From an uncultured Actinomycetes bacterium (GTDB taxonomy: Bacteria; Actinomycetota; Actinomycetes; Mycobacteriales; SCTD01), in contig CAWASE010000013.1 in NCBI GenBank assembly GCA_963784675.1, forward strand, positions 226,660 through 290,659: a stretch of 64,000 bases of DNA, written 5' to 3'. This document shows, in pieces, positions 30,754 through 61,256 of the stretch; the stretch's first letter is position 1, and each line of letters opens with the position of its first letter. A model generated the notes under the pieces. The model did not search any database. It was given only the letters and a program-made list of their open reading frames with translations, and was not told the DNA's origin. Both the position numbers and the translations under genes were made by a program.

Positions 30754-32133
30754 ATGGCCCTGATGCCCATCACCGACTCGATGTTCATGCTGCCCGAGTC
30801 GCGCGAGCAGCCCATGCACGTCGGCGGGCTCCAGCTGTTCGACCTGCCGCCCGGCGCCGACAAGCACTGGCTCGGCGACCTGTACCGGCAGGCCATCCAG
30901 AGCGACGAGGTCGACCCGGTCTTCCGGCGGCGGCCGCACCGGTCGGCCCTGACGCTCGGTCAGTGGACCTGGCAGGACGAGCCCGGCATCGACCTCGAGC
31001 ACCATGTGCGGCACTCGGCGCTGCCGGAGCCGGGTCGCGTCCGCGAGCTGCTGGCGCTCACCTCCCGCCTGCACGGGACCCTGCTGGACCGGAAGCGGCC
31101 GCTGTGGGAGGCGCACCTCATCGAGGGGCTGGAGGGCGACCGCTTCGCCGTCTACATCAAGCTGCACCACGCCCTGATGGACGGGGTCTCGGCGCTGGCC
31201 CTGCTGCAGCGCAGCCTCACCACCGACCCGGACGACCGCAGCGTGCCTGGGCCGTGGGCGCCACGCTCGGTCGAGCGGGCTCGGCGGAGCTCGGGCCCGC
31301 TGTCCGCGCTCTCGGTGCCCCTGTCGATGCCGCGCCTGGCGCTCGGGATGGCGGGCGACGTGGTCGGGCTGGTGCCGACGCTGGCCCGGCTCGCCAGCGA
31401 CGCGCTGCGCTCGCAGACGACGGCGCTCCCGATGCAGGCGCCCCGCTCGATGTTCAACGTCGGCATCACGGGCAGCCGTCGCTTCGCCGCCGAGTCGTGG
31501 TCCATCGAGCGCATCAAGCGCGTGGCGAAGGCCGCCGACGCCACCCTCAACGACGTCGTGCTGGCGATGTGCAGCGGCGCCCTGCGCGCCTACCTGCTCG
31601 ACCTGGACGCCCTGCCGGACAGCCCGCTCATCGCCATGACCCCGGTGTCGCTGCGCAACGAGGACACCCCCGAGCACAGCAACGCCGTCGGCACGATCCT
31701 GTGCAACCTCGCGACCGACCTGGAGAACCCCGGGGCCCGGCTGGTGGCCGTGCGGGCCTCGATGCTGCAGGGCAAGGCCGTGCTGGCGGGCCTGAACCAG
31801 AACCAGGTCACGGCGCTGTCGGCGGTGGTGATGGCGCCGCTGCTGCTCAACTCCGTGCTGGCGCTGCACCGGGTGTCGCCCCCGCCGTTCAACCTGGTCA
31901 TCTCCAACGTGCCCGGCCCGAAGGACCCGCTCTACTGGAACGGCGCGCGGCTGCGCGGTACCTATCCGCTGTCCATCCCGCTGGACGGCCAGGCGCTGAA
32001 CATCACGCTGACCAGCTACGACGGCCAGCTGCACGTCGGGCTGATCGGGTGCCGTCGCACCGTGCCGCGGCTGCAGACGCTGCTGGTGCACCTCGAGCAG
32101 GCGCTCCAGGAGCTGGAGAGCGTCGTGCTCTGA
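30754..32133 (+). CDS. wax ester synthase/diacylglycerol acyltransferase (WS/DGAT)
   Basis: Active-site HHALMDG and the N-terminal sequence PMHVGGLQLF, which I recognise as typical of this family. Confidence 0.85.
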   Translation: MALMPITDSMFMLPESREQPMHVGGLQLFDLPPGADKHWLGDLYRQAIQSDEVDPVFRRRPHRSALTLGQWTWQDEPGIDLEHHVRHSALPEPGRVRELLALTSRLHGTLLDRKRPLWEAHLIEGLEGDRFAVYIKLHHALMDGVSALALLQRSLTTDPDDRSVPGPWAPRSVERARRSSGPLSALSVPLSMPRLALGMAGDVVGLVPTLARLASDALRSQTTALPMQAPRSMFNVGITGSRRFAAESWSIERIKRVAKAADATLNDVVLAMCSGALRAYLLDLDALPDSPLIAMTPVSLRNEDTPEHSNAVGTILCNLATDLENPGARLVAVRASMLQGKAVLAGLNQNQVTALSAVVMAPLLLNSVLALHRVSPPPFNLVISNVPGPKDPLYWNGARLRGTYPLSIPLDGQALNITLTSYDGQLHVGLIGCRRTVPRLQTLLVHLEQALQELESVVL

Positions 32134-32163
32134 CCGAGGTCGGCGGTCGGCTCGCACGCACGG

Positions 32164-32191
32164 ACGGCCGGTCCCTCGCGGGACCGGCCGT
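32164..32191. terminator. bidirectional stem-loop terminator between convergent genes
   Basis: A perfect 12-bp stem, acggccggtccc-tcgc-ggggaccggccgt read as acggccggtccc / gggaccggccgt. No U-tract, as I would expect for a high-GC actinobacterial terminator. Confidence 0.6.
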
Positions 32192-32205
32192 CGACGTGGA
32201 GGTGC

Positions 32206-32898
32206 TCAGGCGTTCGCGACCGTGGCCTGGCTCGGCGTCTGGACCGAGGTCGGTGACTGCTGCGGCGAGGGGGTCGTCGCCGCGTCGGTGTCGGGGCCGG
32301 GCCCGTCCCCGTGCTTGCTGGCGGGGCCGTGCCCGCCTCCGTGGTGGCCGCGACCGCCCCGCGGCGGTCCGGTCCGATCGACCCGGTCCGCCACCTCTGC
32401 GGCGAGACCGGCCTTGCGGGCGTCGGCCTGCGCCTGCGTGAGACGACCCGCGGCGACCGCCTCGGTCAGCCGCTGCTGGCCGGCGGCGACGAGCGAGTCG
32501 ATCAGGGCCTGCTTGGCGACGCCGTGAGCAGCAGCCACCTGGGCCAAGGTCTTGCCGGACTGCAGCTCGGTGCGCAGCTGGGCCGGCGTCAGGCCGAGCA
32601 GGTCGGCGATCTCCTGGGCGCCGGCTTCCCGTCCGCCGGGTCCGGCGGCGCGCTGGTCTCCGGCGGCGCGCTGGGGCGGCGTCGCCTGCAAGGTGCTCGC
32701 GACCTTGTCGGCCTGCGCCTGGGTGAGGGTGCCGTCGGTGACGAGACCCTTGAGGGCGTCCGTCAGCGCCGACAGCCGGCCGCCCACGCCCGATCCGGGG
32801 TCGGCCTGAGCGGCAGCGGGCAGCAGCACGGCCCCGGCCAGCCCGAGGGAGCCGGCCAGGGCGGTGCCGGCGACCGTGGTCACGAGGCGCTTGCGCAT
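32206..32898 (-). CDS. secreted LTxxQ-motif protein with Gly/His-rich tail (paralog of 39453-40115)
   Basis: The ATG at 32898 is preceded by GGAGGA. Signal peptide ...LLPAAAQA-DPG. Motifs TLTQAQADKV, GLTPAQLRTEL and RLTQAQADAR. The tail reads PPRGGRGHHGGGHGPASKHGDGPGPD. Confidence 0.7.
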   Translation of the reverse strand: MRKRLVTTVAGTALAGSLGLAGAVLLPAAAQADPGSGVGGRLSALTDALKGLVTDGTLTQAQADKVASTLQATPPQRAAGDQRAAGPGGREAGAQEIADLLGLTPAQLRTELQSGKTLAQVAAAHGVAKQALIDSLVAAGQQRLTEAVAAGRLTQAQADARKAGLAAEVADRVDRTGPPRGGRGHHGGGHGPASKHGDGPGPDTDAATTPSPQQSPTSVQTPSQATVANA

Positions 32899-32961
32899 GG
32901 GTCCTCCGTCGTCAGGGCCCGCGTCGTCGCGGGCGCTCTGGCGTCCACTGTGGCCGCGCAC

Positions 32962-32990
32962 CCTGTGACGCGGCTGTGACGGGCCTGTGA
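32962..32990 (-). promoter_or_regulatory. three 11-nt-phased PhoP-box-like heptamers (TCACAGG, TCACAGC, TCACAGG on the minus strand)
   Basis: The + strand reads cctgtgacgcggctgtgacgggcctgtga. The heptamer T residues are at 32990, 32979 and 32968. The element lies 63 nt upstream of the ATG at 32898, in the same orientation as the gene. Confidence 0.55.
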
Positions 32991-33006
32991 GTGCGGTGCC
33001 GGTCGC

Positions 33007-33956
33007 TCACAGGGCCCGCGGCGCCCACGCGACCGCTGCCGCCGCGGCGCCGACCGTGGCCAGCAGCGCGAGCCCGGCCGCTGGCGCGCCGACCGGCTGT
33101 CGTTCGGTGGTGGTCCCGAGACTGCTGCCGATGTCGGCATAGACCGCGGTGAGCTGCTCGCCGTCGGCCGCCTCGTACGCGCTGCCGTCGGTGCCGGCGG
33201 CGAGCTGGGCGAGGGCGGGGGCGTCGACCGGGACGCCGCAGGGACCGCCGGTCGACGGTGACGGTGCCCTGCTGGGTGCCGTACGCGATGGTCGAGACGG
33301 GGACGTGCGCCGCCGTGGCCAGGGCCGCCGCGGCGTCGATGCTGCGGCCGGCGGTGTTCGCGCCGTCGGACAGCAGGACGATGTGCGCGGGGACCGGGTC
33401 GCCGCCACCAGGGACGGCGTCGACGGCCGACAGGGAGGCTGCGACGGCTTCGCCGACGGCGGTGCCGTTGCCCGAGCCGCAGCGGTGCCGATGGCCCGCT
33501 CGACAGCGAGGTGCTCCTGCGTGGCGGGGACGACGACGGCGGCGGTGCCGGAGAAGGCGACCAGGCCGACGTTGAAGCGCGCAGGCAGCCCGTCGACGAA
33601 GGACTGGGCGGCCGCCTTGGCGGCGGTGAAGCGGTCCGGAGCGACATCGGTCGCCGCCATCGACAGCGAGACGTCCAGGGCCACCACGACGGTGGCCCGC
33701 TCGCGTGGCACCTGGACCTCGGCGGACGGGTCGGCGAACGCCGCCGTCGACCCGGCCAGCGCCGTCAGCACCAGAGCCGCGCCGGACGTGCCGGCGCCAG
33801 CCGAGCCGGGGCGCGACCGACGCAGCAGGTCCAGGCCGGTGAGCCGGACGGCATAGCGGCTGCGCCGGCGTTGCGCGAGCACGTACGCCGCGCCGAGGGC
33901 GACGACGACGAGAGCAGCCAGAGCCGCCCGGGATGGTCGAAGACGAGCCCGGTCAT
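33007..33956 (-). pseudogene. VWA domain-containing protein (BatA-like), reading frame broken about 3 times
   Basis: MTGLVFDHPGRLWLL..., MIDAS VVVALDVSLSMAATDVAPDRFTAAK, FNVGLVAFSG, then GNGTAVGEAV...HIVLLSDGANTAG...VSTIAYGT in another frame, then VPVDAPALAQLAAGTDGSAYEA back in the first. It is collinear with the intact paralog at 35975-36949. Frame changes lie near 33905, 33485 and 33253. Confidence 0.6.
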
Positions 33957-34891
33957 GCCGCACCCGCCCGGACGCGCGGCGCCGCGGGTGCGGCGCCGGA
34001 CGGTGAGGAAACGGGCGAGCTGCGGGAGCCAGTCGGTCGTCGGTCAGCACGACCAGGTGCCCGGCGCCGGCGCGCGTACCGCCTGGCGCTGCGCGCTCGC
34101 CCGCTCTGCGGCCGCGGCGGCATAGCGCGCACGCGTCCGGGCGTCCGTGCGCAGGGTGACCCCGGCCCCGCCGGTCCGGGATCGGCGAGCTCAGGACGCC
34201 GACCGCGGGCAGGCTCGAGCTCGCGGCGGTCGACGACCTGGGCGACGAGCGACGTCGTGCCGGGCGGCGAGCAGCCGCAGCGGGCGCGCCAGTCTCGACC
34301 GGGTCGAGCAGGTCGCTGACCACGACCACCATGCCGCGGCGGCGCGGGCGGGCGACCACCGCCCGCGGGCCGGCGGCGAGGTCGAGGGGGCCCTCGCGGT
34401 GCGACGCGGGGCTGGCGCAGCAGCGCCGGACGAGCGCGCGTGGACCCGGCGCGTCCGGCGCGGGCCGGCAGCGTGGCGCACGGCGTGCCCGTCGACCACC
34501 AGGGCCCCGACGCGGTCGCCGGGCCGGGTGCCCAGGTGCAGGAACGCCGCGGCGAGCGCCAGCGCGACCTCGCGCTTCTCCGCGGTGGCCGTCCCGAAGG
34601 ACATGGACGCGGAAAGGTCTACCAGCACGGTGGTCTCGAGCTCCCGCTCGGCCACGGTCATCCGTACGTGCGGGGTCGTGCTGCGGGCGGTCACGGCCCA
34701 GTCGATGCGGCGGACGTCGTCACCGGGTGCATAGGCGCGGGCCTCGGCGGCCTCGGTACCGGGCCCCGGCAGAGAGCCCAGGTGGTCGCCCTGCACGAGC
34801 CCGTCCAACCGTCGGGAGACGTCGTACGGGAGCCGGCGCAGCCGGGCGGGCGCGGCGAGAGGGGGCGGCGGCAAGGCCGTCGGCGCGCCTC

Positions 34892-34895
<4 letters not shown>
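33953..34895 (-). pseudogene. DUF58 domain-containing protein, reading frame broken many times
   Basis: The ATG at 34895 sits in an ATGA overlap with the inferred moxR stop. YAPGDDVRRIDWAVTARS...TVLVDLSASM is in one frame. RRRGMVVVVSDLLDP, WARPLRLLAARHDV, LVAQVVDRRELE, LPAVGVL, ELADP, GVTLRTDARTRARYAAAAAERA, HLVVLTDD and DWLPQLARFL are scattered over all three frames, indicating at least 8 indels. Confidence 0.55.
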
Positions 34896-35936
<1,041 letters not shown>

Positions 35937-35974
35937 GGTGCGGACTCCTTGCAAGAGGGACGGGACGGGACAGG

Positions 35975-36949
35975 TCAGACCAGGCGCGAGAACCACGCCA
36001 GGGACAGGGCAGAGCCGGCAGCGAGCAGGGCGAGCGCGCCGCCGGCGAACAGGTCGGCCAGGTCGGTGCGCCGGGTCAGCTGCACCAGCTGGGAGGTGAT
36101 GTCGTCGTAGGTGGCGCGCAGCTGCTCGGCCGAGGCAGCGGTGTAGGCGGTCCCGCCGGTCTCGGCGGCGACCTGCGCGAGGGCCTCGCTGTTGACGGGC
36201 ACCTGGTAGGTGATGCCGTTCGCGACCACGATCCCGCCGGGGGTGCCGTAGGCGATCGTCGAGACGGGGACGCCGGCGGTCTGCACCGCCGTGGTGGCGT
36301 CCGGGAGCGGCGTGCCGATCGTGCTGTCTCCGTCGGAGAGCAGCACGATGCGACCGGCTCTGGAGAGGTCGGCCTGCGGCAGCGCCGAGGCGACCGCGTC
36401 CAGCGAGGTGAGCAGGGCGTCGCCGGCCGCGGTGCCGCCGGACATCGTCAACCCGTCGACGGCCCGGGCCACCTGCTCGTGCTCGGCGGTGGGCGCGGCG
36501 ACGAGGGTGACGGCGGCGTCGTAGGACACCAGCCCCACGTCGACGTCGGCCGGCAGGTCGCGGACGAAGGCCTTGGCCGCGGCGGTCGCGGCAGTGAACC
36601 GGTCCGGGGCGACGTCGGTCGCCATCATCGAGGAGCTGGTGTCCAGGGCGACCAGGACGACGGCCCGCTCGGTGGCGTGGTCGGCGAGCACCTGCGGTCG
36701 GGCGAAGGCGGTCGTCAGGGCGAGGACCGCGAGGACCAGCCCGCCGGCCGCGACCGGCCGTCGCCAGCCGGGCCGGTGCGGCGCGACGGACGGCAGCAGG
36801 GCGGCCTCGGCGTACTGCTCGCTCCCGCGCCGGTGCCTCCACCGGACGAGCAGGCCGACGACCCCGGCTACCGCCAGGACCGCGAGCAGCCACAGCCGGC
36901 CGGGGGCGTCGAAGCGGAAGTCGGCGGCAGCGAAGGTGTGAGCGTCCAT
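35975..36949 (-). CDS. VWA domain-containing protein (BatA-like), intact
   Basis: MDAHTFAAADFRFDAPGRLWLL, TM segments, MIDAS VVLVALDTSSSMMATDVAPDRF, VGLVSYD, GGTAAGDAL, IVLLSDGDST, and a C-terminal TM. Confidence 0.8.
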   Translation of the reverse strand: MDAHTFAAADFRFDAPGRLWLLAVLAVAGVVGLLVRWRHRRGSEQYAEAALLPSVAPHRPGWRRPVAAGGLVLAVLALTTAFARPQVLADHATERAVVLVALDTSSSMMATDVAPDRFTAATAAAKAFVRDLPADVDVGLVSYDAAVTLVAAPTAEHEQVARAVDGLTMSGGTAAGDALLTSLDAVASALPQADLSRAGRIVLLSDGDSTIGTPLPDATTAVQTAGVPVSTIAYGTPGGIVVANGITYQVPVNSEALAQVAAETGGTAYTAASAEQLRATYDDITSQLVQLTRRTDLADLFAGGALALLAAGSALSLAWFSRLV

Positions 36950-37037
36950 GGCCAGAACGGTGCGGCGCGGTCCTGGCACCGACCTGCGCACCGGCTGGAC
37001 GTCCGCTGTGCACTCCCGCGGCTACCGTGCGACGGGC

Positions 37038-37077
37038 TCACAGCAAGCTCACAGCAAAGGCCCAGACTGGTGACAGG
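37038..37077 (+). promoter_or_regulatory. PhoP-box direct repeats in the divergent promoter (TCACAGC-N4-TCACAGC, plus in-phase GCCCAG and TGACAGG)
   Basis: Read directly: gcTCACAGCaagcTCACAGCaaaggcccagactggTGACAGGcc. The heptamers start at 37038, 37049, (37060) and 37071. The element lies 66 nt upstream of the RR ATG and 89 nt from the vwa1 ATG. Confidence 0.65.
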
Positions 37078-37142
37078 CCACCGCCAGACGATGGTGCGGC
37101 AGGCCGGGGACCCGGCGGCGAACCGCGTACCGAGGAGCTCGC

Positions 37143-37877
37143 ATGACCACCGCCACCCGCCCGGACAGCGAAGCCCGGCTGCTCGTCGTGGACGACGAGC
37201 CCAACATCCTGGAGCTGTTGTCGGTGAGCCTGCGCTTCGCTGGCTTCGACGTCGCGACGGCGACGAACGGCGTGGACGCCCTGAACCGGGCGCGCGAGTT
37301 CCGTCCCGAGCTGATGGTGCTCGACGTGATGATGCCCGGCATGGACGGGTTCGAGGTGGCCCGGCAGCTGCGCAGCACCGGCGACCAGGTGCCGGTGCTG
37401 TTCCTGACCGCCAAAGACGCCACCGAGGACCGTGTGCAGGGCCTGACCCTGGGCGGCGACGACTACGTCACCAAGCCGTTCAGCCTGGAGGAGGTCGTGG
37501 CCCGCATCCGCGCGGTGCTGCGTCGCACCGGCGGAGCGGCCGCACCGGACCCCGTCCAGAGCCGCTCGCGACTGTCCTACGCCGACATCGTCCTGGACGA
37601 CGACACGCACGAGGTGTGGAAGGGGGAGCAGGAGGTCGACCTGTCCCCGACGGAGTTCAACCTGCTGCGGTACCTGCTGCAGAACCCGGGTCGGGTGCTG
37701 TCCAAGCGGCAGATCCTCGAGCACGTCTGGAACTACGACTTCGGTGGTGACGGCAACGTCGTGGAGTCCTACATCTCCTACCTGCGCCGCAAGGTCGACA
37801 CCGCCGAGCCCCGGCTGCTGCACACGGTGCGCGGGGTCGGCTACGTCCTGCGGCTGCCGAAGTCGCCGGGCGCGTGA
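37143..37877 (+). CDS. phoP: OmpR/PhoB-family response regulator, closest in my reading to M. tuberculosis PhoP (Rv0757)
   Basis: ARLLVVDDEPNILELLSVSLRFAGFDVATATNG...MVLDVMMPGMDGFEV...LTLGGDDYVTKPFSLEEVVARIRAVLRR...LSPTEFNLLRYL...NVVESYISYLRRKVD...LHTVRGVGYVLR. This is near-collinear with Mtb PhoP as I remember it. GAGGAG RBS. Confidence 0.8.
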   Translation: MTTATRPDSEARLLVVDDEPNILELLSVSLRFAGFDVATATNGVDALNRAREFRPELMVLDVMMPGMDGFEVARQLRSTGDQVPVLFLTAKDATEDRVQGLTLGGDDYVTKPFSLEEVVARIRAVLRRTGGAAAPDPVQSRSRLSYADIVLDDDTHEVWKGEQEVDLSPTEFNLLRYLLQNPGRVLSKRQILEHVWNYDFGGDGNVVESYISYLRRKVDTAEPRLLHTVRGVGYVLRLPKSPGA

Positions 37878-39352
37878 GCCCCGGCCCGGACGTCGCTCCG
37901 AGGACGGGGCGGCTCTCGCGGGTGCCGCTGCGCACCCAGCTCGTGGCCCTGCTGCTCGGCACCGTCGCCCTGGTCGTCGCGCTGACCAGCGTCGCGGGCA
38001 GCGTCGCCCTGCACGACTACCTGGTGAACCGCATCGACGTGCAGCTCGCCGCGGCGCTCGAGGATCCCGGCGGCCCCGGCGGTGCCGGGTTCGGGCGACC
38101 GCGTCGCGGTGGGGGGCCCGACGAGGGCGGCCGGGACGTCGCCGTCACGACCCTCGACTACGACGCCGAGGGGCGGCTGTCCCCCCGCGACGTCGCTGAG
38201 CTCGCTGCCTTCGGCGGGCCGGAGGTCGACGACCCGACGGCGCTGCCCGACGGGCCCTCCGACGTGCCCGCCGTCTCCGGTGCCGGCAGCTGGCGGGTGC
38301 TGGCCGGCGACGGCTCGCGCACCGGCGGGGTCCGCGTGGTCGCCGTGTCGCTGGACGGGGTGCGCGACACCGGCTCGCAGCTGCTGCTCATCAACGCTGC
38401 CGTCGGCCTGATCGCCTTGGCCGGGGCGGGCGTGCTGGCGTGGGCCGCGGTGCGCCGCAGCCTCGCGCCGCTGGTGTCGGTGGAGGAGACCGCCGAGGCG
38501 ATCGCGGCAGGAGACCTGACCCGTCGGGTCCGCGAGGGAGACCCGCGCACCGAGGTCGGCTCGCTCGCTGCCTCTTTCAACAGCATGGTCGACCGCTTCG
38601 AGAGCGCGTATTCGGCCCAGCAGCAGTCGGAGTCGGCGGCGCGCGCGTCGGAGGAGCGGATGCGTCGTTTCGTCGGCGACGCCAGCCACGAGCTGCGCAC
38701 GCCGTTGACGTCCATCCGCGGGTTCGCCGAGCTCTTCCGGCAGGGAGCGGCGCGCGAGCCCGAACAGCTCGCCCGGGTGATGCGTCGCATCGAGGACGAG
38801 GCAGCCCGGATGGGGCTGCTGGTCGAGGACCTGCTGCTGCTCGCGCGGCTGGACCAGCAACGGCCGCTGCGACAGGAGACGGTCGACCTGCTGTCGGTCG
38901 TGGCCGACGTCGTGCACGACGCGGCGACGGTGTACGAGGACCACACCGTGCGCCTGGTCGCCCCCACCGGGCCGGGGCTGCCGGAGGTCGTCGGCGACGA
39001 CCCGCGGCTGCGGCAGGTGTTCAGCAACCTGGTCACCAACGCCGTCACGCACACCGCTCGCGGGACCACGGTCGACGTCGCGCTGCACGCCGACCACGTC
39101 ACCGTCACCGTCACCGTCACCGACGACGGAGCCGGCATGGCCCCGGACGTCGCGGAGCGCGTGTTCGAGCGGTTCTACCGCGCCGACGCCTCCCGCTCGC
39201 GCACGGCGCCGCAGGCCAGCGGCAGCGGCCTGGGCCTGTCCATCGTGGCTGCCCTGGTGGCGGCGCACGGGGGCAGCGTCGAGGTCACCAGCACGGTCGA
39301 CGTCGGTACGTGCTTCCTGGTGCGGCTGCCGGCCCGGCCCGTCCAGGACTGA
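37874..39352 (+). CDS. phoR: sensor histidine kinase (PhoR-like: TM-loop-TM, HAMP, HisKA, HATPase_c)
   Basis: GTGA overlap with the RR gene. Two TM segments flank an extracytoplasmic loop of about 150 aa. H-box RRFVGDASHELRTPLTSIRGFAELFRQGAA. DDGAGM and GSGLGLSIV. Confidence 0.8.
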   Translation: MSPGPDVAPRTGRLSRVPLRTQLVALLLGTVALVVALTSVAGSVALHDYLVNRIDVQLAAALEDPGGPGGAGFGRPRRGGGPDEGGRDVAVTTLDYDAEGRLSPRDVAELAAFGGPEVDDPTALPDGPSDVPAVSGAGSWRVLAGDGSRTGGVRVVAVSLDGVRDTGSQLLLINAAVGLIALAGAGVLAWAAVRRSLAPLVSVEETAEAIAAGDLTRRVREGDPRTEVGSLAASFNSMVDRFESAYSAQQQSESAARASEERMRRFVGDASHELRTPLTSIRGFAELFRQGAAREPEQLARVMRRIEDEAARMGLLVEDLLLLARLDQQRPLRQETVDLLSVVADVVHDAATVYEDHTVRLVAPTGPGLPEVVGDDPRLRQVFSNLVTNAVTHTARGTTVDVALHADHVTVTVTVTDDGAGMAPDVAERVFERFYRADASRSRTAPQASGSGLGLSIVAALVAAHGGSVEVTSTVDVGTCFLVRLPARPVQD

Positions 39353-39367
39353 CAGCCGGGTCACAGC
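39350..39367 (+). promoter_or_regulatory. PhoP-box-like direct repeat TGACAGC-N4-TCACAGC
   Basis: It starts at the phoR stop codon and lies 86 nt upstream of the ATG at 39453. The spacing is 11 nt, and the orientation is the same as at the phoP promoter. Confidence 0.45.
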
Positions 39368-39452
39368 AGCAGCGGGGACTCCTGCCAGCCGGGAGGACGA
39401 GGTTGATGACATCGCAGGCCGACCAGGCCCGCCCCGCTCCCAGGAGAACCTC

Positions 39453-40115
39453 ATGCGCACCAAGCTCGCCACCGCCGCTCTGATCGGCTCCCTCGGCCTG
39501 ACCGGCGTCGCCGGCGCGGCCCTGCTCTCCCCGGCCGTGTCCTACGCGGCGACCGGTGCCGCGACCGCCGTCTCGGACCGCGCCGCCTCTCTCGCCAGCA
39601 CGCTGAAGGGTCTGGTGAGCGACGGCACCATCACCCAGGCGCAAGCCGACAAGGTCGCCTCCACGCTCGCCGCGGCGGCTCCGGCCCGCGGTGACGGCGG
39701 CCCCGGGCACGGCCGCGACGGAGGCGGCGGCGGCCGGGTCGACCAGGCCGCTGCCGCCACCGCGCTGGGCCTGTCCGCCGACGCGCTGCGGACGCAGCTG
39801 GACGCGGGCAAGACCCTCGCGCAGGTCGCCGACGCCCAGGGCGTGGACCAGGCGACGCTGGTGAAGGCGCTGGTCACCTCGGCGAAGGGGCGGCTGGCCG
39901 ACCAGGTCGCCTCCGGCCGGATCACCCAGGCGCAGGCCGACACCCGGGCCAGCACCCTGCAGGCCGAGATCACCGAGCACCTGGACGACGTCTGCCTGCC
40001 CGGGGGCGGCGGCCCGGGCCACGGCCCGCGCGGCAACGACGGTGACGCCGACGACGCCCCGGCCACCACCGCGTCGCCCGCTCCCGCGACGGCGGGCGCC
40101 GGCAGCGCCGCCTGA
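39453..40115 (+). CDS. secreted LTxxQ-like protein with Gly/His/Asp-rich tracts (paralog of 32206-32898)
   Basis: AGGAGA RBS. Signal peptide ...LLSPAVSYA-ATG. LKGLVSDGTITQAQADKVASTL is nearly identical to the paralog. GKTLAQVADAQGVDQATLVKALV...RITQAQADTR. Tracts GDGGPGHGRDGGGGG and PGGGGPGHGPRGNDGD. Confidence 0.7.
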   Translation: MRTKLATAALIGSLGLTGVAGAALLSPAVSYAATGAATAVSDRAASLASTLKGLVSDGTITQAQADKVASTLAAAAPARGDGGPGHGRDGGGGGRVDQAAAATALGLSADALRTQLDAGKTLAQVADAQGVDQATLVKALVTSAKGRLADQVASGRITQAQADTRASTLQAEITEHLDDVCLPGGGGPGHGPRGNDGDADDAPATTASPAPATAGAGSAA

Positions 40116-40131
40116 CCCCGCTCCACCCCTA

Positions 40132-40165
40132 CGACAGCCGGCTCCCGAGAGGGGGCCGGCTGTCG
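40132..40165 (+). terminator. stem-loop terminator
   Basis: cgacagccggctccc-gaga-gggggccggctgtcg. A 15-bp stem with one G-U pair, 17 nt after the stop codon. Confidence 0.6.
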
Positions 40166-40251
40166 GCGTCCCGGGCCGGCCAGGCGGCCTCGGGTCTGCC
40201 TCGGTGACGCAGGGCCGGTCGGCGGCCGCGCCTGCGGTGGACACTGTCAGG

Positions 40252-41550
40252 GTGTCCCATTCCACGCCGTCCCGTCCTCCTGGCGGGGAGCTGGCCCCCG
40301 CCGTCGCCCGCGCGCTCGACGAGGTGCGCGCGGAGGATCTCGTCGCGCTGGTGCAGGAGCTCGTAGCGGTCCCGACCGTCACCGGCAGCGACGCCGAGAG
40401 CGAGGGACAGCACCTGCTCGAGCGACGCTGGCGCTCGGCCGGGCTCGAGACCGACCTGTGGTCGGTGGACCTCGCGGAGCTGCGGGCGCACCCGGACTTC
40501 CCCGGCTCGGAGGCGCCGCGGACCGAGGCCTGGGGGCTGGTCGGGTCCTGGGGCGGTGACGACGGGCCCACCGTCGTGCTCAACGGCCATCTGGACGTCG
40601 TCCCGCCCGGCGACGTCGCGCGCTGGTCCGACGGCCCCTTCTCCGGCCCGGTGCGGGACGGTCGCGTGTTCGGCCGCGGCAGCTGCGACATGAAGGGCGG
40701 GCTCGCCTGTCAGCTCGTCGCCGTCCAGGCCCTGCGACGGGCGGGGGTGCAGCTGCGCGGCCGCGTCCAGCTGCAGAGCGTCGTGAGCGAGGAGGACGGC
40801 GGGCTGGGCACCTTCGCGACCCTGCAGCGGGGGCACCGCGGTGACCTGGCCGTCATCGGTGAGCCGACCGCCGGCGCGCTGGTGACGGCGGCGGCCGGGG
40901 CGCTGACCTTCCGGCTCACGCTCACCGGCCGCGCTGCCCATGCGTCGCTGCGCGGCCGCGGGGTCGACGCCGTGGAGAAGTACCTGCTCGTGCACCAGGC
41001 GCTCCGACGCCTGGAGCAGCAGCGCAACACCGACGTCCCGCCCCTGTTCGGTGGCCTGGCCACGCCGTACGCCGTCTCGGTGGGGTCGCTGCGCGCCGGC
41101 GACTGGCCCAGCACCGTGCCGGAGTCGCTGGTGGCCGAGGGTCGGCTCGGGGTCGCGCTGGGTGAACCGGTGGCACACGCCCGCGCAGCCCTGGAGGCCT
41201 GCCTCGCCGAGCTGGGCGCCGAAGATGCCTGGCTGGCAGCACATCCGGTGCAGGTCGAGTGGTTCGGGGGGCAGTTCGCCAGCGGTCAGGTCGCGGCCGA
41301 CGCACCCGTCGTGCAGCTGGTCGCCGCCGCCCATGCGCGCGTCCACGGGCAGGCGCCGGCGCACGCCGCCGTTCCCGCCGGCACCGACCAGCGGCTGCTC
41401 ACCGGGCTGGGGGCCACCCCGGCGCTGCACTACGGCCCGGGCGACCTCGCGCTGGCGCACGCGCCCGACGAGTCGGTGCCCGTCGCCGAGCTCGTCTCGG
41501 TCGCGCAGGCGCTCGTGCTGGTGGTCGCCCAGGGGTGCGGCGTGCGGTGA
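40252..41550 (+). CDS. M20 family metallopeptidase (ArgE/DapE/ACY1/CPG2 type)
   Basis: VVLNGHLDVVPPG...FGRGSCDMKGGLA...QSVVSEEDGGLG...HAPDESV. The start is uncertain between GTG 40252 and GTG 40237. Confidence 0.8.
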   Translation: MSHSTPSRPPGGELAPAVARALDEVRAEDLVALVQELVAVPTVTGSDAESEGQHLLERRWRSAGLETDLWSVDLAELRAHPDFPGSEAPRTEAWGLVGSWGGDDGPTVVLNGHLDVVPPGDVARWSDGPFSGPVRDGRVFGRGSCDMKGGLACQLVAVQALRRAGVQLRGRVQLQSVVSEEDGGLGTFATLQRGHRGDLAVIGEPTAGALVTAAAGALTFRLTLTGRAAHASLRGRGVDAVEKYLLVHQALRRLEQQRNTDVPPLFGGLATPYAVSVGSLRAGDWPSTVPESLVAEGRLGVALGEPVAHARAALEACLAELGAEDAWLAAHPVQVEWFGGQFASGQVAADAPVVQLVAAAHARVHGQAPAHAAVPAGTDQRLLTGLGATPALHYGPGDLALAHAPDESVPVAELVSVAQALVLVVAQGCGVR

Positions 41551-41569
41551 CGCCGCCCCCGACGACAGG

Positions 41570-42289
41570 TCAGCGGCTGCGTAGGCGGTAGCGGCCGAGC
41601 AGCACGCCGTCGTCGCCGTCGAGCAGGTGCACGGTCTCCCACGGCACCGGGCCCGGCAGCAGCCGGTCGAGCAGGTGGGGCCCGCCGCCGACCAGCAGCG
41701 GCGCGTGCGTCAGGCACAGCTCGTCGACCAGACCGGCGACGAGCAGGTCGCCGAGCAGCCGGGGACCGCCCTCGCAGTGCAGCCGCGTCAGGCCGCGCTC
41801 GTGCAGCGCGGTCCGCGCCGCCGCCAGATCGATCTCGTGCGTCCCTGCCACGACGACGGCCGCGACGCGCTCGGCCAGCCGGCGTCGCCGCGAGGAGTCG
41901 GCGGCCTCGCAGGTGACCAGGACGGTGTCGGGGAGCAGGACCTGTTCCGGTAGGTCCAACGACGTGCTGACGATGACGAGCGGCGGCCGCCCGGAGCGTC
42001 CGTGGGCGGCGCGCCAGGCCTGCCCGGCAGGTCGGGGCCGCACCGGGCCGTAACCCTCGTCGCGGACGGTGCCGGCGCCGACGAGCACCGCGTCGCAGCC
42101 GGCCCGCAGCACGTGGAACACCTCTTGGTCGGCCGGGGACTGCAGGCCGCGGCTGCCTCCGTCGACCGCCACGACACCGTCGGCGCTGAGCACGAAGCCA
42201 CCGCGCAGCAGCGGTCCGTCGCCGGGGTCGTACAGGTCGAGCAGGTCGTCGGAGGTGAGCCGGTCCGGCTGCGGGGCGAGCAGCCGCAC
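41570..42289 (-). CDS. RibD C-terminal domain / dihydrofolate reductase-like pyrimidine reductase family protein
   Basis: SADGVVAVDGGSRGLQSPADQEVFHVLRAGCDAVLVGAGTVRDEGY...LHCEGGPRLLGDLLVAGLVDELCLTHAPLLVGGG. Confidence 0.75.
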   Translation of the reverse strand: MRLLAPQPDRLTSDDLLDLYDPGDGPLLRGGFVLSADGVVAVDGGSRGLQSPADQEVFHVLRAGCDAVLVGAGTVRDEGYGPVRPRPAGQAWRAAHGRSGRPPLVIVSTSLDLPEQVLLPDTVLVTCEAADSSRRRRLAERVAAVVVAGTHEIDLAAARTALHERGLTRLHCEGGPRLLGDLLVAGLVDELCLTHAPLLVGGGPHLLDRLLPGPVPWETVHLLDGDDGVLLGRYRLRSR

Positions 42290-58781: not shown

Positions 58782-59725
58782 GCAGCCGCCGCGGCCGGTT
58801 CGCCGCCGACAGCGGGCTGACCTCGCGGATGCTGCTCGTGCTCTTCCTGCTCGGGCTGCTGTACGTCGTCGCGATCGGTGCGCTCATCGGCCTCGGGATC
58901 AGCCCGGTGGTGGTGCTCGTGGTGGTCGGCGGGTTCTTCGTCTTCCAGTACGTCGCCAGCGACAAGATCGCGCTGTACGCGATGAACGGTCGGCTGGTCG
59001 AGCCTGCGGAGGCCGCTGAGCTGCACGGGGTCATCGACCGGCTCTGCGCGCTGTCGGACACCCCGAAGCCGCGCGTGGCCGTCGCCGACAGCGACGTGCC
59101 CAACGCCTTCGCCACCGGGCGCAGCCCGTCCAAGGCCGTCGTCTGCGTGACCACCGGCCTGCTGCGGCGGCTCGAGCCGGACGAGCTGGAGGGCGTGCTC
59201 GCGCACGAGCTGTCGCACGTCGCGCACCGCGACGTCGCCGTGATGACCATCGCCTCCTTCCTCGGCGTCCTGTCCGGGCTCATCACCCGCTTCGTGCTGC
59301 AGTCGATGGCCTTCGGCGGCTTCGGCCAGGGCTACGGCGGTCGCGGCTACGGTCGCGACCGCAGCGACAACCGCGACAGCAACAGCGGCATCCCGATCGT
59401 CATCGCCGTGATCGTGGTGTCGGCCCTGGTCTACGCCGTCAGCTTCCTGCTCATCCGGGCGCTGTCGCGCTACCGCGAGCTGTCGGCCGACCGCACGGCC
59501 GCGCAGCTCACCGGCCGGCCGTCCTCGCTCGCCTCGGCCCTGACGAAGGTCACCGGCGAGATGGCCCGCGTCCCCACCCGCGACCTGCGCGAGGCCGAGC
59601 CGTTCAACGCCTTCTTCTTCACCCCGGCGCTGGCGCAGGGCTTCAGCCTGTCCTCGCTGTTCTCCACCCACCCGTCGCTGGACACCCGGCTGGCGCAGCT
59701 GGCGAAGATGTCGGCGACGTCATGA
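58778..59725 (+). CDS. htpX: zinc metalloprotease HtpX (M48)
   Basis: N-terminal TM pair, PNAFATG, HELSHVAHRD (HExxH), YRELSADRTAAQLTG, and THPSLDTRL. Confidence 0.9.
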   Translation: MSSRRGRFAADSGLTSRMLLVLFLLGLLYVVAIGALIGLGISPVVVLVVVGGFFVFQYVASDKIALYAMNGRLVEPAEAAELHGVIDRLCALSDTPKPRVAVADSDVPNAFATGRSPSKAVVCVTTGLLRRLEPDELEGVLAHELSHVAHRDVAVMTIASFLGVLSGLITRFVLQSMAFGGFGQGYGGRGYGRDRSDNRDSNSGIPIVIAVIVVSALVYAVSFLLIRALSRYRELSADRTAAQLTGRPSSLASALTKVTGEMARVPTRDLREAEPFNAFFFTPALAQGFSLSSLFSTHPSLDTRLAQLAKMSATS

Positions 59726-60291
59726 CGTTCCTCGACGCGCTGCTGGGGCGCAAGAAGCCGGTGCCGCCGGACCTCGACGCCCTGTTCGCGCTGCCGTCGG
59801 CGGCGGTCGGCCTGCAGGCCTCCCTGGCGCTCGTGCCGACCGGCCTCGGGTCGGTCTGCATCAAGCCGGTGGAGGGTGCCGCCTTCACCCGCACCCAGAC
59901 CGAGGTGCAGGCGCTGCTGCGCGTCGACGACACCTCCCGCGTCGACGTCACGCGCGACGACTACGGCTATGCCTGGACGACGGTCGCCGCCGACCGGAGC
60001 CGGCTGCCCGACGTCGTCAGTGCGCTGCACGCGGCCAACACCACCTACGCCCGCGACGAGTTCGGGACCGGCCTGCTCTGCTCGCTGGTGGGCTTCCAGG
60101 GCCCGGACGGGCGAGCGGTCGCGCTGGTCTACCTCTACAAGCGGGGGACGTTCTACCCGTTCGCCCCGCGCGGCGCACAGCAGCGCGACACGGCCCTGGA
60201 GCTGCAGGTGCGCGCCGCGATCGGTGCTGACCTCAAGATCGAGCCGGACCTGTCCCGCTGGTTCCCGGTCTGGGGTGCTCCGGGGCTGTGA
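59722..60291 (+). CDS. PspA-associated protein (PspAB-like), conserved hypothetical
   Basis: MTFLDALLGRKKPVPPDLDALFALPSAA...YLYKRGTFYPFAP... ATGA overlap with htpX. It is the last gene of the operon. Confidence 0.6.
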   Translation: MTFLDALLGRKKPVPPDLDALFALPSAAVGLQASLALVPTGLGSVCIKPVEGAAFTRTQTEVQALLRVDDTSRVDVTRDDYGYAWTTVAADRSRLPDVVSALHAANTTYARDEFGTGLLCSLVGFQGPDGRAVALVYLYKRGTFYPFAPRGAQQRDTALELQVRAAIGADLKIEPDLSRWFPVWGAPGL

Positions 60292-60380
60292 CGTCCCGGG
60301 CTGTGACGTCCCGGGCTGTGACGTCCGGGCGTGACGTTCGGGCTGTGACGTCCGCGCGGTGACGTCCGCGCGGTGACCCG
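60285..60380. repeat. 7-unit tandem repeat array (13-15-nt period, core GTGACG; four units carry GCTGTGA, which is TCACAGC on the minus strand)
   Basis: gctgtgacgtcccgg gctgtgacgtcccgg gctgtgacgtccgg gcgtgacgttcgg gctgtgacgtccgcgc ggtgacgtccgcgc ggtgacccg. It fills the whole gap between two convergent stop codons (60291 and 60381). Confidence 0.85.
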
Positions 60381-61256
60381 TCAGAGCGTCCCGACGTCGT
60401 GGCCGAGCAGCTGCAGCGCCAGCGCGCCGGCGCCGATCAGCGGCGCGTCCCGGCCGAGCCCCACCGGCGCGATGCGGCAGCCGTCCGTCGAGCTCAACCG
60501 GCTGGTCGCGCGTAGGCCCCGGCTGGCGGCCGAGAAGAACGGTCCGCCGTAGCCGAGGGCCACCGACCCGCCGATGGCGACCAGCGACAGGTCCAGCAGG
60601 TTCACCACCGACGCCAGCCCCTGACCCAGCAGCCGGCCGGCCCGCAGCACCTCCGCCATCGGCGCCCGGGCGGCCGGCGCGCCGGTGCGGGCGGCGATCG
60701 CCGTGCCGCTGATCTCGGCCTCCAGGCACCCCTGCCCGCCGCAGGAGCACGGCGCACCGTCCGGCACCACGACCACGTGACCGATGAAGCCGGCGTTGCC
60801 TGCCCGGCCGTGCAGCAGCCGTCCGTCGAGCACGAGCCCGCCGCCGACGCCGGTGGACACCACCATCGCCAGGTAGTCGCGGGTGCCTGCGGCCGCGCCC
60901 TTCCACCCCTCGCCGACGGCCAGCGCCTTCGCGTCGCCGTCGACGACCACCGGCATCCGGAGCGCCCGCTCCAGCCGGGCGTGCAGCGGGAACTGCCGCC
61001 AGGCGGGCATGTTCAGCGGCGAGACCGCCTCGCCTCCCCGGGTCATCGGACCCGTCGTCCCGACTCCGGCGGCCGCGACCCCCTCGGGCGAGACCTGCTG
61101 CACCGCTGACAGGACGGCGGCCAGCAGCACCTCGGGATCCTCGCCCCGCGGCGTCAGGGCGGTCGCCGAGCGGTGCAGGACACCGTCGCCGTCGAGGATG
61201 CCGGCGGCGATCTTCGTGGCGCCGATGTCGATCGCCAGGACGGTCTGCGCGGGCAC
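60381..61256 (-). CDS. ROK family sugar kinase
   Basis: LAIDIGATKIAAG, VVDGDAKALAVGE, GAGNAGFIGH, and zinc motif CSCGGQGCLE. Confidence 0.85.
   Translation of the reverse strand: MPAQTVLAIDIGATKIAAGILDGDGVLHRSATALTPRGEDPEVLLAAVLSAVQQVSPEGVAAAGVGTTGPMTRGGEAVSPLNMPAWRQFPLHARLERALRMPVVVDGDAKALAVGEGWKGAAAGTRDYLAMVVSTGVGGGLVLDGRLLHGRAGNAGFIGHVVVVPDGAPCSCGGQGCLEAEISGTAIAARTGAPAARAPMAEVLRAGRLLGQGLASVVNLLDLSLVAIGGSVALGYGGPFFSAASRGLRATSRLSSTDGCRIAPVGLGRDAPLIGAGALALQLLGHDVGTL

Follow-up and report, generated by a model that had tools for sequence, protein, structure and literature searches.

Two paralogous genes for predicted secreted helical proteins flank a mycobacterial-type phoPR operon and are probably controlled by PhoP

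In Mycobacterium tuberculosis the PhoP-PhoR system is a master regulator of virulence, and both its ancestral role and the way in which it perceives its signal are debated. In the regulator family to which PhoP belongs, occupancy of the -35 region is the classic layout for activation of transcription. Small secreted proteins that work together with two-component systems are best described in Proteobacteria, where CpxP, Spy and ZraP, all members of the LTXXQ family, are periplasmic chaperone-modulators of CpxAR, BaeSR and ZraSR, respectively; ZraP, in addition, is Gly/His-rich at its ends. For three other families that will be relevant here, DUF2680 (to which Bacillus YckD belongs), DUF1707 and gp23.1 of phage SPP1, we know of no established function.

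M. tuberculosis PhoP binds the direct repeat TCACAGC-N4-TCACAGC, with a strict spacer of 4 bp and hence a period of 11 bp, and its binding extends, cooperatively, to tri- and tetra-repeats (PMC4832192). According to the crystal structure of PhoP with DNA, the bases are read by N212, V213, E215, S216, Y217 and Y220, whereas K195, W203, F207, S219, R222, R223, R237 and Y241 contact phosphates and the minor groove (PMC4832192). The phoP gene is autoregulated via direct repeats in both M. tuberculosis and M. abscessus (PMC10715180), mycobacterial PhoR has been reported to be a sensor of acidic pH (PMC10723718), and the structure of its DHp domain is available (PDB 5UKV, PMC7005713).

The window analysed here, i.e. 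the whole 64-kb stretch of DNA, is actinobacterial sequence of 70-77% G+C from an uncultured soil organism to which, among named ones, Frankiales MAGs and Motilibacter are closest. It contains a regulator-kinase pair in which phoR overlaps phoP by 4 nt and is translationally coupled to it, and from which a second arm of genes diverges on the minus strand (Table 1). Paralog B starts 100 nt past the stop codon of the kinase (39352), and paralog A lies 109 nt beyond the second VWA gene, the final gene of the opposite arm. The preliminary description of this DNA, which had one copy closing each divergent arm, thus had the geometry right, with B after the kinase and A after the VWA, MoxR, DUF58 and VWA genes.

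Table 1. Genes, candidate regulatory elements and protein segments at the phoPR locus (nucleotide positions are those of the window; residues are those of the paralog B product)
Feature	Position	Strand	Details
Paralog A	32206..32898	-	230 aa from MRKRL; BLASTP match to B
Paralog A, -10-like CACAGT(GG)	32947..32952	-	putative; +38 from box start
Paralog A, PhoP-box array	32958..32990	-	three perfect units: TCACAGGCCCG TCACAGCCGCG TCACAGGGTGC
VWA gene of the minus-strand arm	35975..36991	-	diverges from the regulator; then MoxR, DUF58, second VWA, paralog A
phoP, PhoP-box array	37038..37081	+	units TCACAGCAAGC TCACAGCAAAG GCCCAGACTGG TGACAGGCCAC; putative autoregulation
phoP, -10-like GACGAT(GG)	37087-37092	+	putative; +49 from box start
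phoP	37143..37877	+	OmpR-family response regulator; ortholog of M. tuberculosis PhoP
phoR	37874..39352	+	HAMP-HisKA-HATPase sensor kinase (Pfam domains)
Paralog B, PhoP-box array	39350..39393	+	four 11-bp units: TGACAGCCGGG TCACAGCAGCA GCGGGGACTCC TGCCAGCCGGG
Paralog B, -10-like GAGGTT	39399..39404	+	putative; +49 from box start
Paralog B	39453..40115	+	220 aa, helical, predicted secreted; from ORF and translation
M20 deacylase		+	past paralog B, in the plus-strand arm
B, signal peptide	residues 1-32		...SYA/AT
B, hairpin 1	residues 36-75		helices 36-56 and 62-75; carries DGTITQAQAD
B, Gly/His linker	residues 76-97		disordered in AF2 model
B, five-helix core	residues 98-178		carries GRITQAQAD; AF2 pLDDT about 95
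B, tail	after residue 178		Gly/His/Asp, then Ala/Thr/Pro; disordered in AF2 model

Paralog B had been described as a duplicate of the gene that we call paralog A, and the two are indeed true paralogs: BLASTP aligns their products (220 aa vs 230 aa) with 90 identities in 187 positions (48%, E 2e-38). The alignment starts in the signal peptide and runs through the last helix, and all three peptide pairs originally quoted in support (GRITQAQADTR/GRLTQAQADAR among them) are found inside it. The Gly/His/Asp tracts that had been pointed out in paralog B, GPGHGRDGGGGG and GGGGPGHGPRGNDGDADD, exist as well, and it is these stretches that fail to align. Since the similarity resides in the helical segments, it is not confined to low-complexity sequence. 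A tblastn search of the window returned exactly two copies. Outside it, 457 homologs were found by a word-indexed search at E<=1e-3, mostly in soil metagenomes and, among named organisms, in Frankiales MAGs and Motilibacter, while an exhaustive profile search yielded 16,335 cluster representatives with E<=1e-3, of which 1,499 reach E<=1e-30. With such numbers of homologs, both copies are real genes.

The regulator encoded between the two copies is, judged by its sequence, an ortholog of M. tuberculosis PhoP. It matches that protein (PDB 3r0j/5ed4/9ji3) with an E-value of 2e-101 over residues 8-240, compared with 9e-58 at best for the next families, PrrA and MtrA (about 1e-57 to 1e-50). All of the base-reading residues listed above, which lie in the recognition helix NVVESYISYLRRK (alpha-8), are identical between the two proteins, as are all of the listed backbone and minor-groove contacts. 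The kinase, which has an extracytoplasmic loop of ~130 aa, was compared with M. tuberculosis PhoR at the DHp domain, where it matches 5UKV with E 3.5e-24 (88.8 bits over 72 aa). The NCBIfam equivalogs, including those for the phosphate-type PhoR and PhoB, all score below their own cut-offs, and the heavy-metal sensor subfamily does so with 200.9 bits against a cut-off of 292.55. Therefore, the name phoR, already used in the preliminary description, is probably right in the mycobacterial, acid-sensing sense rather than in that of phosphate sensing.

In the intergenic regions of this locus the motif bound by M. tuberculosis PhoP could be seen by inspection, and we then searched the whole 64 kb for TCACAG-N5-TCACAG, allowing at most one mismatch. 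Four matches were obtained, against 0.22 expected (about 18-fold), a number that none of 100 shuffled sequences reached. All four fall in only three intergenic regions, namely those that precede phoP and the two paralogs, and each has the orientation of the gene that follows it and is phased with a -10-like hexamer. Single STCACAG heptamers show no enrichment in the window (16 found vs 21.9 expected), and therefore it is the phased pair that constitutes the signal. At paralog A two overlapping matches make up the three perfect units, within which Tandem Repeats Finder reports an 11-bp repeat (32962-32990). The match upstream of phoP, at 37038(+), reads TCACAGCAAGCTCACAGC, i.e. the exact consensus TCACAGC-N4-TCACAGC; a perfect tandem repeat of 11 bp was detected there (37036-37057), and two further, weaker units complete the array. 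The match upstream of paralog B, at 39350(+), reads TGACAGCCGGGTCACAG, and its first unit, which overlaps the phoR stop codon, is TGACAG (a single mismatch); one unit of this array is a perfect TCACAG and two are weak, the third being degenerate. The number and strength of the units are the only visible difference between the promoters of A and B. A generic sigma-70 promoter and terminator scan of 32000-41800 gave no predictions, but such a scan is unsuited to an actinobacterium of 75% G+C, and we therefore took the -10 candidates from conservation of phase instead.

The same arrangement recurs in relatives. We compared 26 loci from species-representative genomes and 80 metagenome loci, plus a few more obtained by exact protein look-up, and scanned the 74 homolog genes that had usable upstream sequence, counting as a match a best site with at most three mismatches. 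A box is present between -160 and -30 on the same strand in 65 of the 74 genes, on the opposite strand of that interval in two, and inside the gene in none. The sites are located 66-108 nt before the start codon. The figure of 65/74 overstates the number of independent events, because the metagenome populations behind many of the loci are close relatives of each other; once identical promoters are removed, 50 of 57 have a box, with the consensus tCACAGG..c.TCACAGG. Among these 50 non-redundant promoters, a hexamer of the form nAnnnT is placed +27 from the box start in 15 cases, +38 in 14 and +49 in 17, i.e. at one of three phased offsets in 46/50 and almost nowhere else. In other words, the distance from the first base of the last unit to that of the -10-like element is always 16 nt, in arrays of two, three and four units alike. 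The four-unit layout of paralog B is also seen in the relatives L002, L033, L034, L028 and L038. No exact box was found in the first 27 loci, since most of these belong to distant relatives linked to other regulators; the closer relatives that were added later do carry it.

Taken as a whole, these data are best explained, with a probability of roughly 0.7, by a PhoP-controlled unit that comprises phoPR and both paralogs, the products of which may protect the cell against acid or envelope stress. Control by PhoP is well supported by sequence statistics and comparative conservation, which make both paralogs, most likely, direct PhoP targets. PhoR, which in mycobacteria responds to acidic pH, would here be activated by acid or a related envelope cue, and phosphorylated PhoP would then stack in tandem (two, three or four molecules) along the 11-bp-phased TCACAG(C) units. 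Since the last unit precedes the -10-like hexamer by 16 nt, PhoP would occupy the -35 region, so that the direction of regulation is most likely activation. With an identical design in front of it, phoPR would be autoregulated. After cleavage of their signal peptides the two proteins would act in the cell-wall zone, where their likeliest role would be protection against acid or envelope stress in a self-associating form. The hairpins would be responsible for self-association, and the His-rich linkers might bind protons or metal ions. Feedback on PhoR is conceivable. The preliminary description had suggested functional partitioning between the copies, with one of them a sensor modulator and the other a stress-induced chaperone; having the same type of PhoP-box promoter in front of both points instead to co-regulation, and this shared control argues for co-expression of A and B.

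In comparison with the promoters of the M. tuberculosis PhoP regulon, the window has a PhoP with an identical recognition helix, direct repeats of 7+4 bp, tri- and tetra-arrays and apparent autoregulation of phoP, whereas the target genes appear to differ. Neither the papers on PhoP consulted here nor a literature search for DUF2680 turned up a relative of the A/B family. The pho-box promoters of E. coli PhoB (for the repeat patterns, see PMC4832192) are similar in that phased direct repeats of 11 bp take the place of the -35 element and keep a constant spacing to the -10, but they differ in recognition sequence and probably also in signal, which would be acid here rather than phosphate.

For paralog B one may also consider that it could be read through from phoPR instead of being transcribed from its own promoter. 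Consistent with this, the generic scan of 32000-41800 predicted no terminator, and the array in front of B is the one with a mismatched first unit and a degenerate third.

What the two proteins do may be approached through their architecture. Both copies look secreted, as had been noted before: inspection by eye shows a basic N-terminus followed by a hydrophobic core and an AxA site (SYA/AT in B, AQA/DP in A), and no lipobox Cys is present in either, so that export by Sec and cleavage by signal peptidase I look like the direct reading. The rest of paralog B, according to an AlphaFold2 model built on a 53-sequence family alignment (the paralogs and 51 relatives), consists of a helical hairpin, a linker, a five-helix core and a tail (Table 1), with a pLDDT of 84 when the core is modelled by itself. 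Paralog A has the same architecture, with a His-rich tail (GGRGHHGGGHG). Conservation across the 53 sequences is strongest in two copies of DG(T/R)(L/I)TQAQAD, and the invariant positions include Q62, Q64, A65, D66, G155 and D163. Each (L/I)TQAQ motif begins the second helix of a hairpin; ITQAQ is found in copy B at residues 60-64 and 157-161, and LTQAQ occurs twice in copy A.

The composition of the linkers raises the possibility, which we regard as tentative and on balance somewhat unlikely, that these are metal- or proton-buffering envelope proteins, in which the His/Gly/Asp linkers are the functional part (for Zn, Cu, Ni or acid) and the helices serve only for scaffolding or oligomerisation. 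The His content is 6.4% in linkers and tail but 0.4% in the helices (a 16-fold difference), and His is present in linker 1 of 50 of the 53 members and in the tail of 49, with acidic runs following. Many relatives string together two to seven linker-plus-core modules, and the kinase does score with the heavy-metal sensor subfamily, albeit below cut-off as given above. However, the linkers are conserved in composition only, whereas residue conservation peaks in the helices, where the invariant Q62, Q64, D66 and D163 lie; copy B has a single His per linker, and no known metal-binding motif or family was matched.

Family members are repeatedly linked to two-component systems. In the locus L054 the order is paralog, phoP, phoR, and in L068 it is phoP, phoR, paralog, with regulators 88% and 81% identical, respectively, to the PhoP of the window; in L047 a paralog follows a phoR whose product is 65% identical to the PhoR of the window, phoP being off the contig. 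L028 has the order paralog, phoP, phoR (regulator 88% identical) as well as a second, divergent copy of the paralog, so that two copies flanking phoPR are not unique to the window. In all four loci there is a box upstream of the family gene, and in L028 and L068 there is one upstream of phoP too. Among the 26 species-representative loci, distant homologs adjoin other OmpR-type systems in ten, from Actinomycetota, Chloroflexota and Bacillota, and these loci have 11-bp-phased repeats of their own, of different sequence. This linkage across phyla, together with the private repeats, suggests that the module of gene plus system is old. There are also members located away from any two-component system, as in Motilibacter peucedani (L030).

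Linkage of this kind is reminiscent of CpxP, Spy and ZraP, and paralog B had in fact been labelled an LTxxQ protein. As far as the motif goes this was accurate, since each copy has two, at helix starts; membership of the family, however, is not supported. Neither paralog matches Pfam LTXXQ (PF07813) or Metal_resist (PF13801) at E<=1, and none of the 53 members does so at E<=0.01; when the family profile was compared with E. coli Spy by hhalign, the probability was 0.9% over 23 columns; and Foldseek against the PDB, with either the full or the core-only model, found nothing significant, the structures of CpxP, Spy and ZraP included, so that the bent helical-hairpin "cradle" fold of Spy and CpxP is not matched by the family models. 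A sequence-profile search of the PDB likewise returned nothing below E 0.26, and neither paralog is covered by a family in NCBIfam. The LTXXQ motif by itself, then, does not define the LTXXQ family.

The affinities that do emerge lie elsewhere. Both paralogs score 17.9 bits (E 0.0034) with DUF2680 (PF10925), under its gathering cut-off of 25 bits, while 38 of the 53 aligned relatives match that family at E<=0.01 (best E 2.3e-7), and several relatives in the databases carry a precomputed PF10925 match. SPP1 gp23.1 (SPP1_GP23-1) is matched by 11/53 and the SHOCT-like DUF1707 by 8/53, and the gp23.1 structures (PDB 2xf5-7) align over 24 residues. What is shared with these families is a hairpin of the form helix, G-x-(L/I)-T-x-x-Q/E-A-D, helix, and going by the profile matches the (L/I)TQAQAD motif is part of this DUF2680/SHOCT-like hairpin; in contrast, the five-helix core of A and B, with its HTH-like stretch, is outside every Pfam model. 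The A/B family is thus best described as a longer, DUF2680-related one that appears to share the hairpin. Literature searches provided no functional account: that for DUF2680 gave only unrelated toxin-antitoxin work, and that for yckD only mentions in the context of sporulation, proteomics and signal peptides.

A function like that of CpxP, Spy or ZraP is the reading closest to the preliminary description. A and B would then be putative extracytoplasmic chaperones that damp PhoR via its sensor loop, in negative feedback, with the modulator and chaperone tasks divided between the copies, which we think unlikely. The resemblance is that of small, predicted secreted, all-helical proteins with two helix-capping (L/I)TxxQ motifs, with Gly/His tracts like those of ZraP, and encoded beside a two-component system that apparently regulates them. 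A division of labour might also be served by the three perfect boxes of A as opposed to the weaker ones of B, which could give different induction thresholds. The linkage to such systems across phyla, each with its own phased repeats, keeps a CpxP-like feedback role in play. Against it stand the Pfam, hhalign and Foldseek results, i.e. the lack of any sequence, profile or detectable fold similarity, and those members that, like the one in M. peucedani, are beside no kinase. Further differences from CpxP, Spy and ZraP are the plan (hairpin, linker, five-helix core) and a host that is an actinobacterium without an outer membrane.

In an even more doubtful extension, PhoR-type kinases throughout Gram-positive-type phyla would have the family as their dedicated partner outside the cytoplasm. 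It would exert CpxP-like feedback with an unrelated fold, and protonation or metal binding of the His linkers would switch either its self-association or its attachment to the kinase loop. If this were true, the family would be part of the mechanism by which PhoPR perceives acid.

Finally, that the paralogs merely happen to be near phoPR, with TCACAG repeats that are due to chance or belong to another regulator, is in keeping with the lack of enrichment of single heptamers and with those members that adjoin no two-component system, but is very improbable given the 18-fold excess of the phased pair and its confinement to three promoters, the conservation of position, strand and -10 phase across dozens of loci, and the identical design upstream of phoP itself.

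The PhoP-controlled unit proposed above provides a testable regulatory link from an M. tuberculosis-type PhoPR to a large family of predicted secreted orphan proteins, which is likely a conserved output of the system. In these free-living relatives, phoP itself aside, the PhoP boxes that are cleanest and best conserved are in front of a single secreted family, which may be a pointer to the original purpose of PhoPR, and two small genes with strong boxes and few confounding virulence circuits make for a simple test system. For the family itself (over 16,000 cluster representatives, up to seven tandem modules and repeated linkage to two-component systems) this is a lead to function, and in annotation CpxP/Spy function should not be transferred to A/B-type proteins via "LTxxQ".

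Several minor observations concern the window and its closest counterparts. A cluster of GTCACAG at 60286-60349 was rejected as a PhoP site, its period being 14-15 bp rather than 11 and its location being between convergent genes. An Rfam scan of 32000-41000 for leaders gave only sub-threshold chance matches. In L028 the gene P0018 has only a site with four mismatches. A protein identical to that of paralog B is annotated in public assemblies, and paralog A is annotated as a 230-aa gene in a public collection (P0121); the GTG at 32961, an alternative start of paralog A, would precede the -10 hexamer predicted for this gene.

The Gly/His linker and the five-helix core of the family behave together as a repeatable extracytoplasmic module: many relatives (proteins P0102 and P0122-P0196) are polymers containing two to seven tandem copies of this linker-plus-core unit, with lengths of up to about 1,200 aa. 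In the 53-member family alignment, the C-terminal residue is Ala in 42 proteins (endings such as ...TA, ...NA, ...DA and ...AA), preceded by a tail of Ser, Thr, Pro and Ala that is otherwise not conserved. About one fifth of the members, copy B among them, carry a single Cys directly past the last helix.

Between the predicted -10 element and the start codon of copy B lies a leader of about 40 nt, equivalents of which are conserved ahead of copy-B-like genes at eight other loci (L002, L028, L033, L034, L038, L047, L054 and L068). No Rfam match was found for this leader; transcription might start within it, it might form a structure in the 5'-UTR, or a second regulator might bind there. In the cultured relative Motilibacter peucedani (loci L030/L031), the family gene has no adjoining two-component system and is preceded by a set of ferric-reductase-like, FMN_bind and ApbE (flavin transferase) genes; the only box upstream of it, at position -107, carries three mismatches.

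More distant homologs (L004, L005, L006, L007, L010 and L016) adjoin other OmpR-type two-component systems. Within the 150 nt upstream of these homologs we spotted, by eye, direct repeats phased at 11 bp whose sequence differs from that of the PhoP box (three examples are listed in the table), and the pairing of regulator and target may have co-evolved across phyla.

Coordinates and sequences of the features discussed
Feature	Source	Position	Sequence
Leader of copy B	window	39413-39452	GCAGGCCGnCnGGCCCGCC...GACGAGGAG
Shared phoP/VWA-MoxR upstream region, 151 bp	window	36992-37142	
DUF58 and second VWA genes, MoxR/DUF58 junction	window	33007-35940 (-)	
Tandem repeat, ~6.5 copies, 14-15-bp unit	window	60279-60377	GGGCTGTGACGTCC; minus strand GACGTCACAGCCCGG
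Perfect hexamer repeat	window	39097-39122	(CGTCAC)x4.3
Family gene of M. peucedani	L030	8001-8672	
Phased repeat	L006		TTCTTAACTGT TTCTTAAATTG
Phased repeat	L010		CTCTCACCGAT CTCTCACGAAG
Phased repeat	L007		TTCTTACCTGA TTCTTGCTGCT

The region upstream of phoP, which houses the phoP box array, is common to phoP and the divergent VWA-MoxR operon. Since the first unit of the array is 47 nt from the start codon of that minus-strand operon, predicted PhoP binding there might influence the operon as well. Its DUF58 and second VWA genes are readable only through several frame switches, with no stop codon intervening at the MoxR/DUF58 junction, and are either decaying pseudogenes or the product of assembly indel errors.

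Two further repeats were observed. The longer one lies where gene 59722-60291(+) and the ROK-type kinase gene 60381-61256(-) converge. It contains TCACAGC, but its period is wrong for PhoP and it was rejected as a PhoP site. The hexamer repeat encodes VTVTVTVT in the ATPase-domain coding region of phoR, and is a possible site of in-frame slippage.
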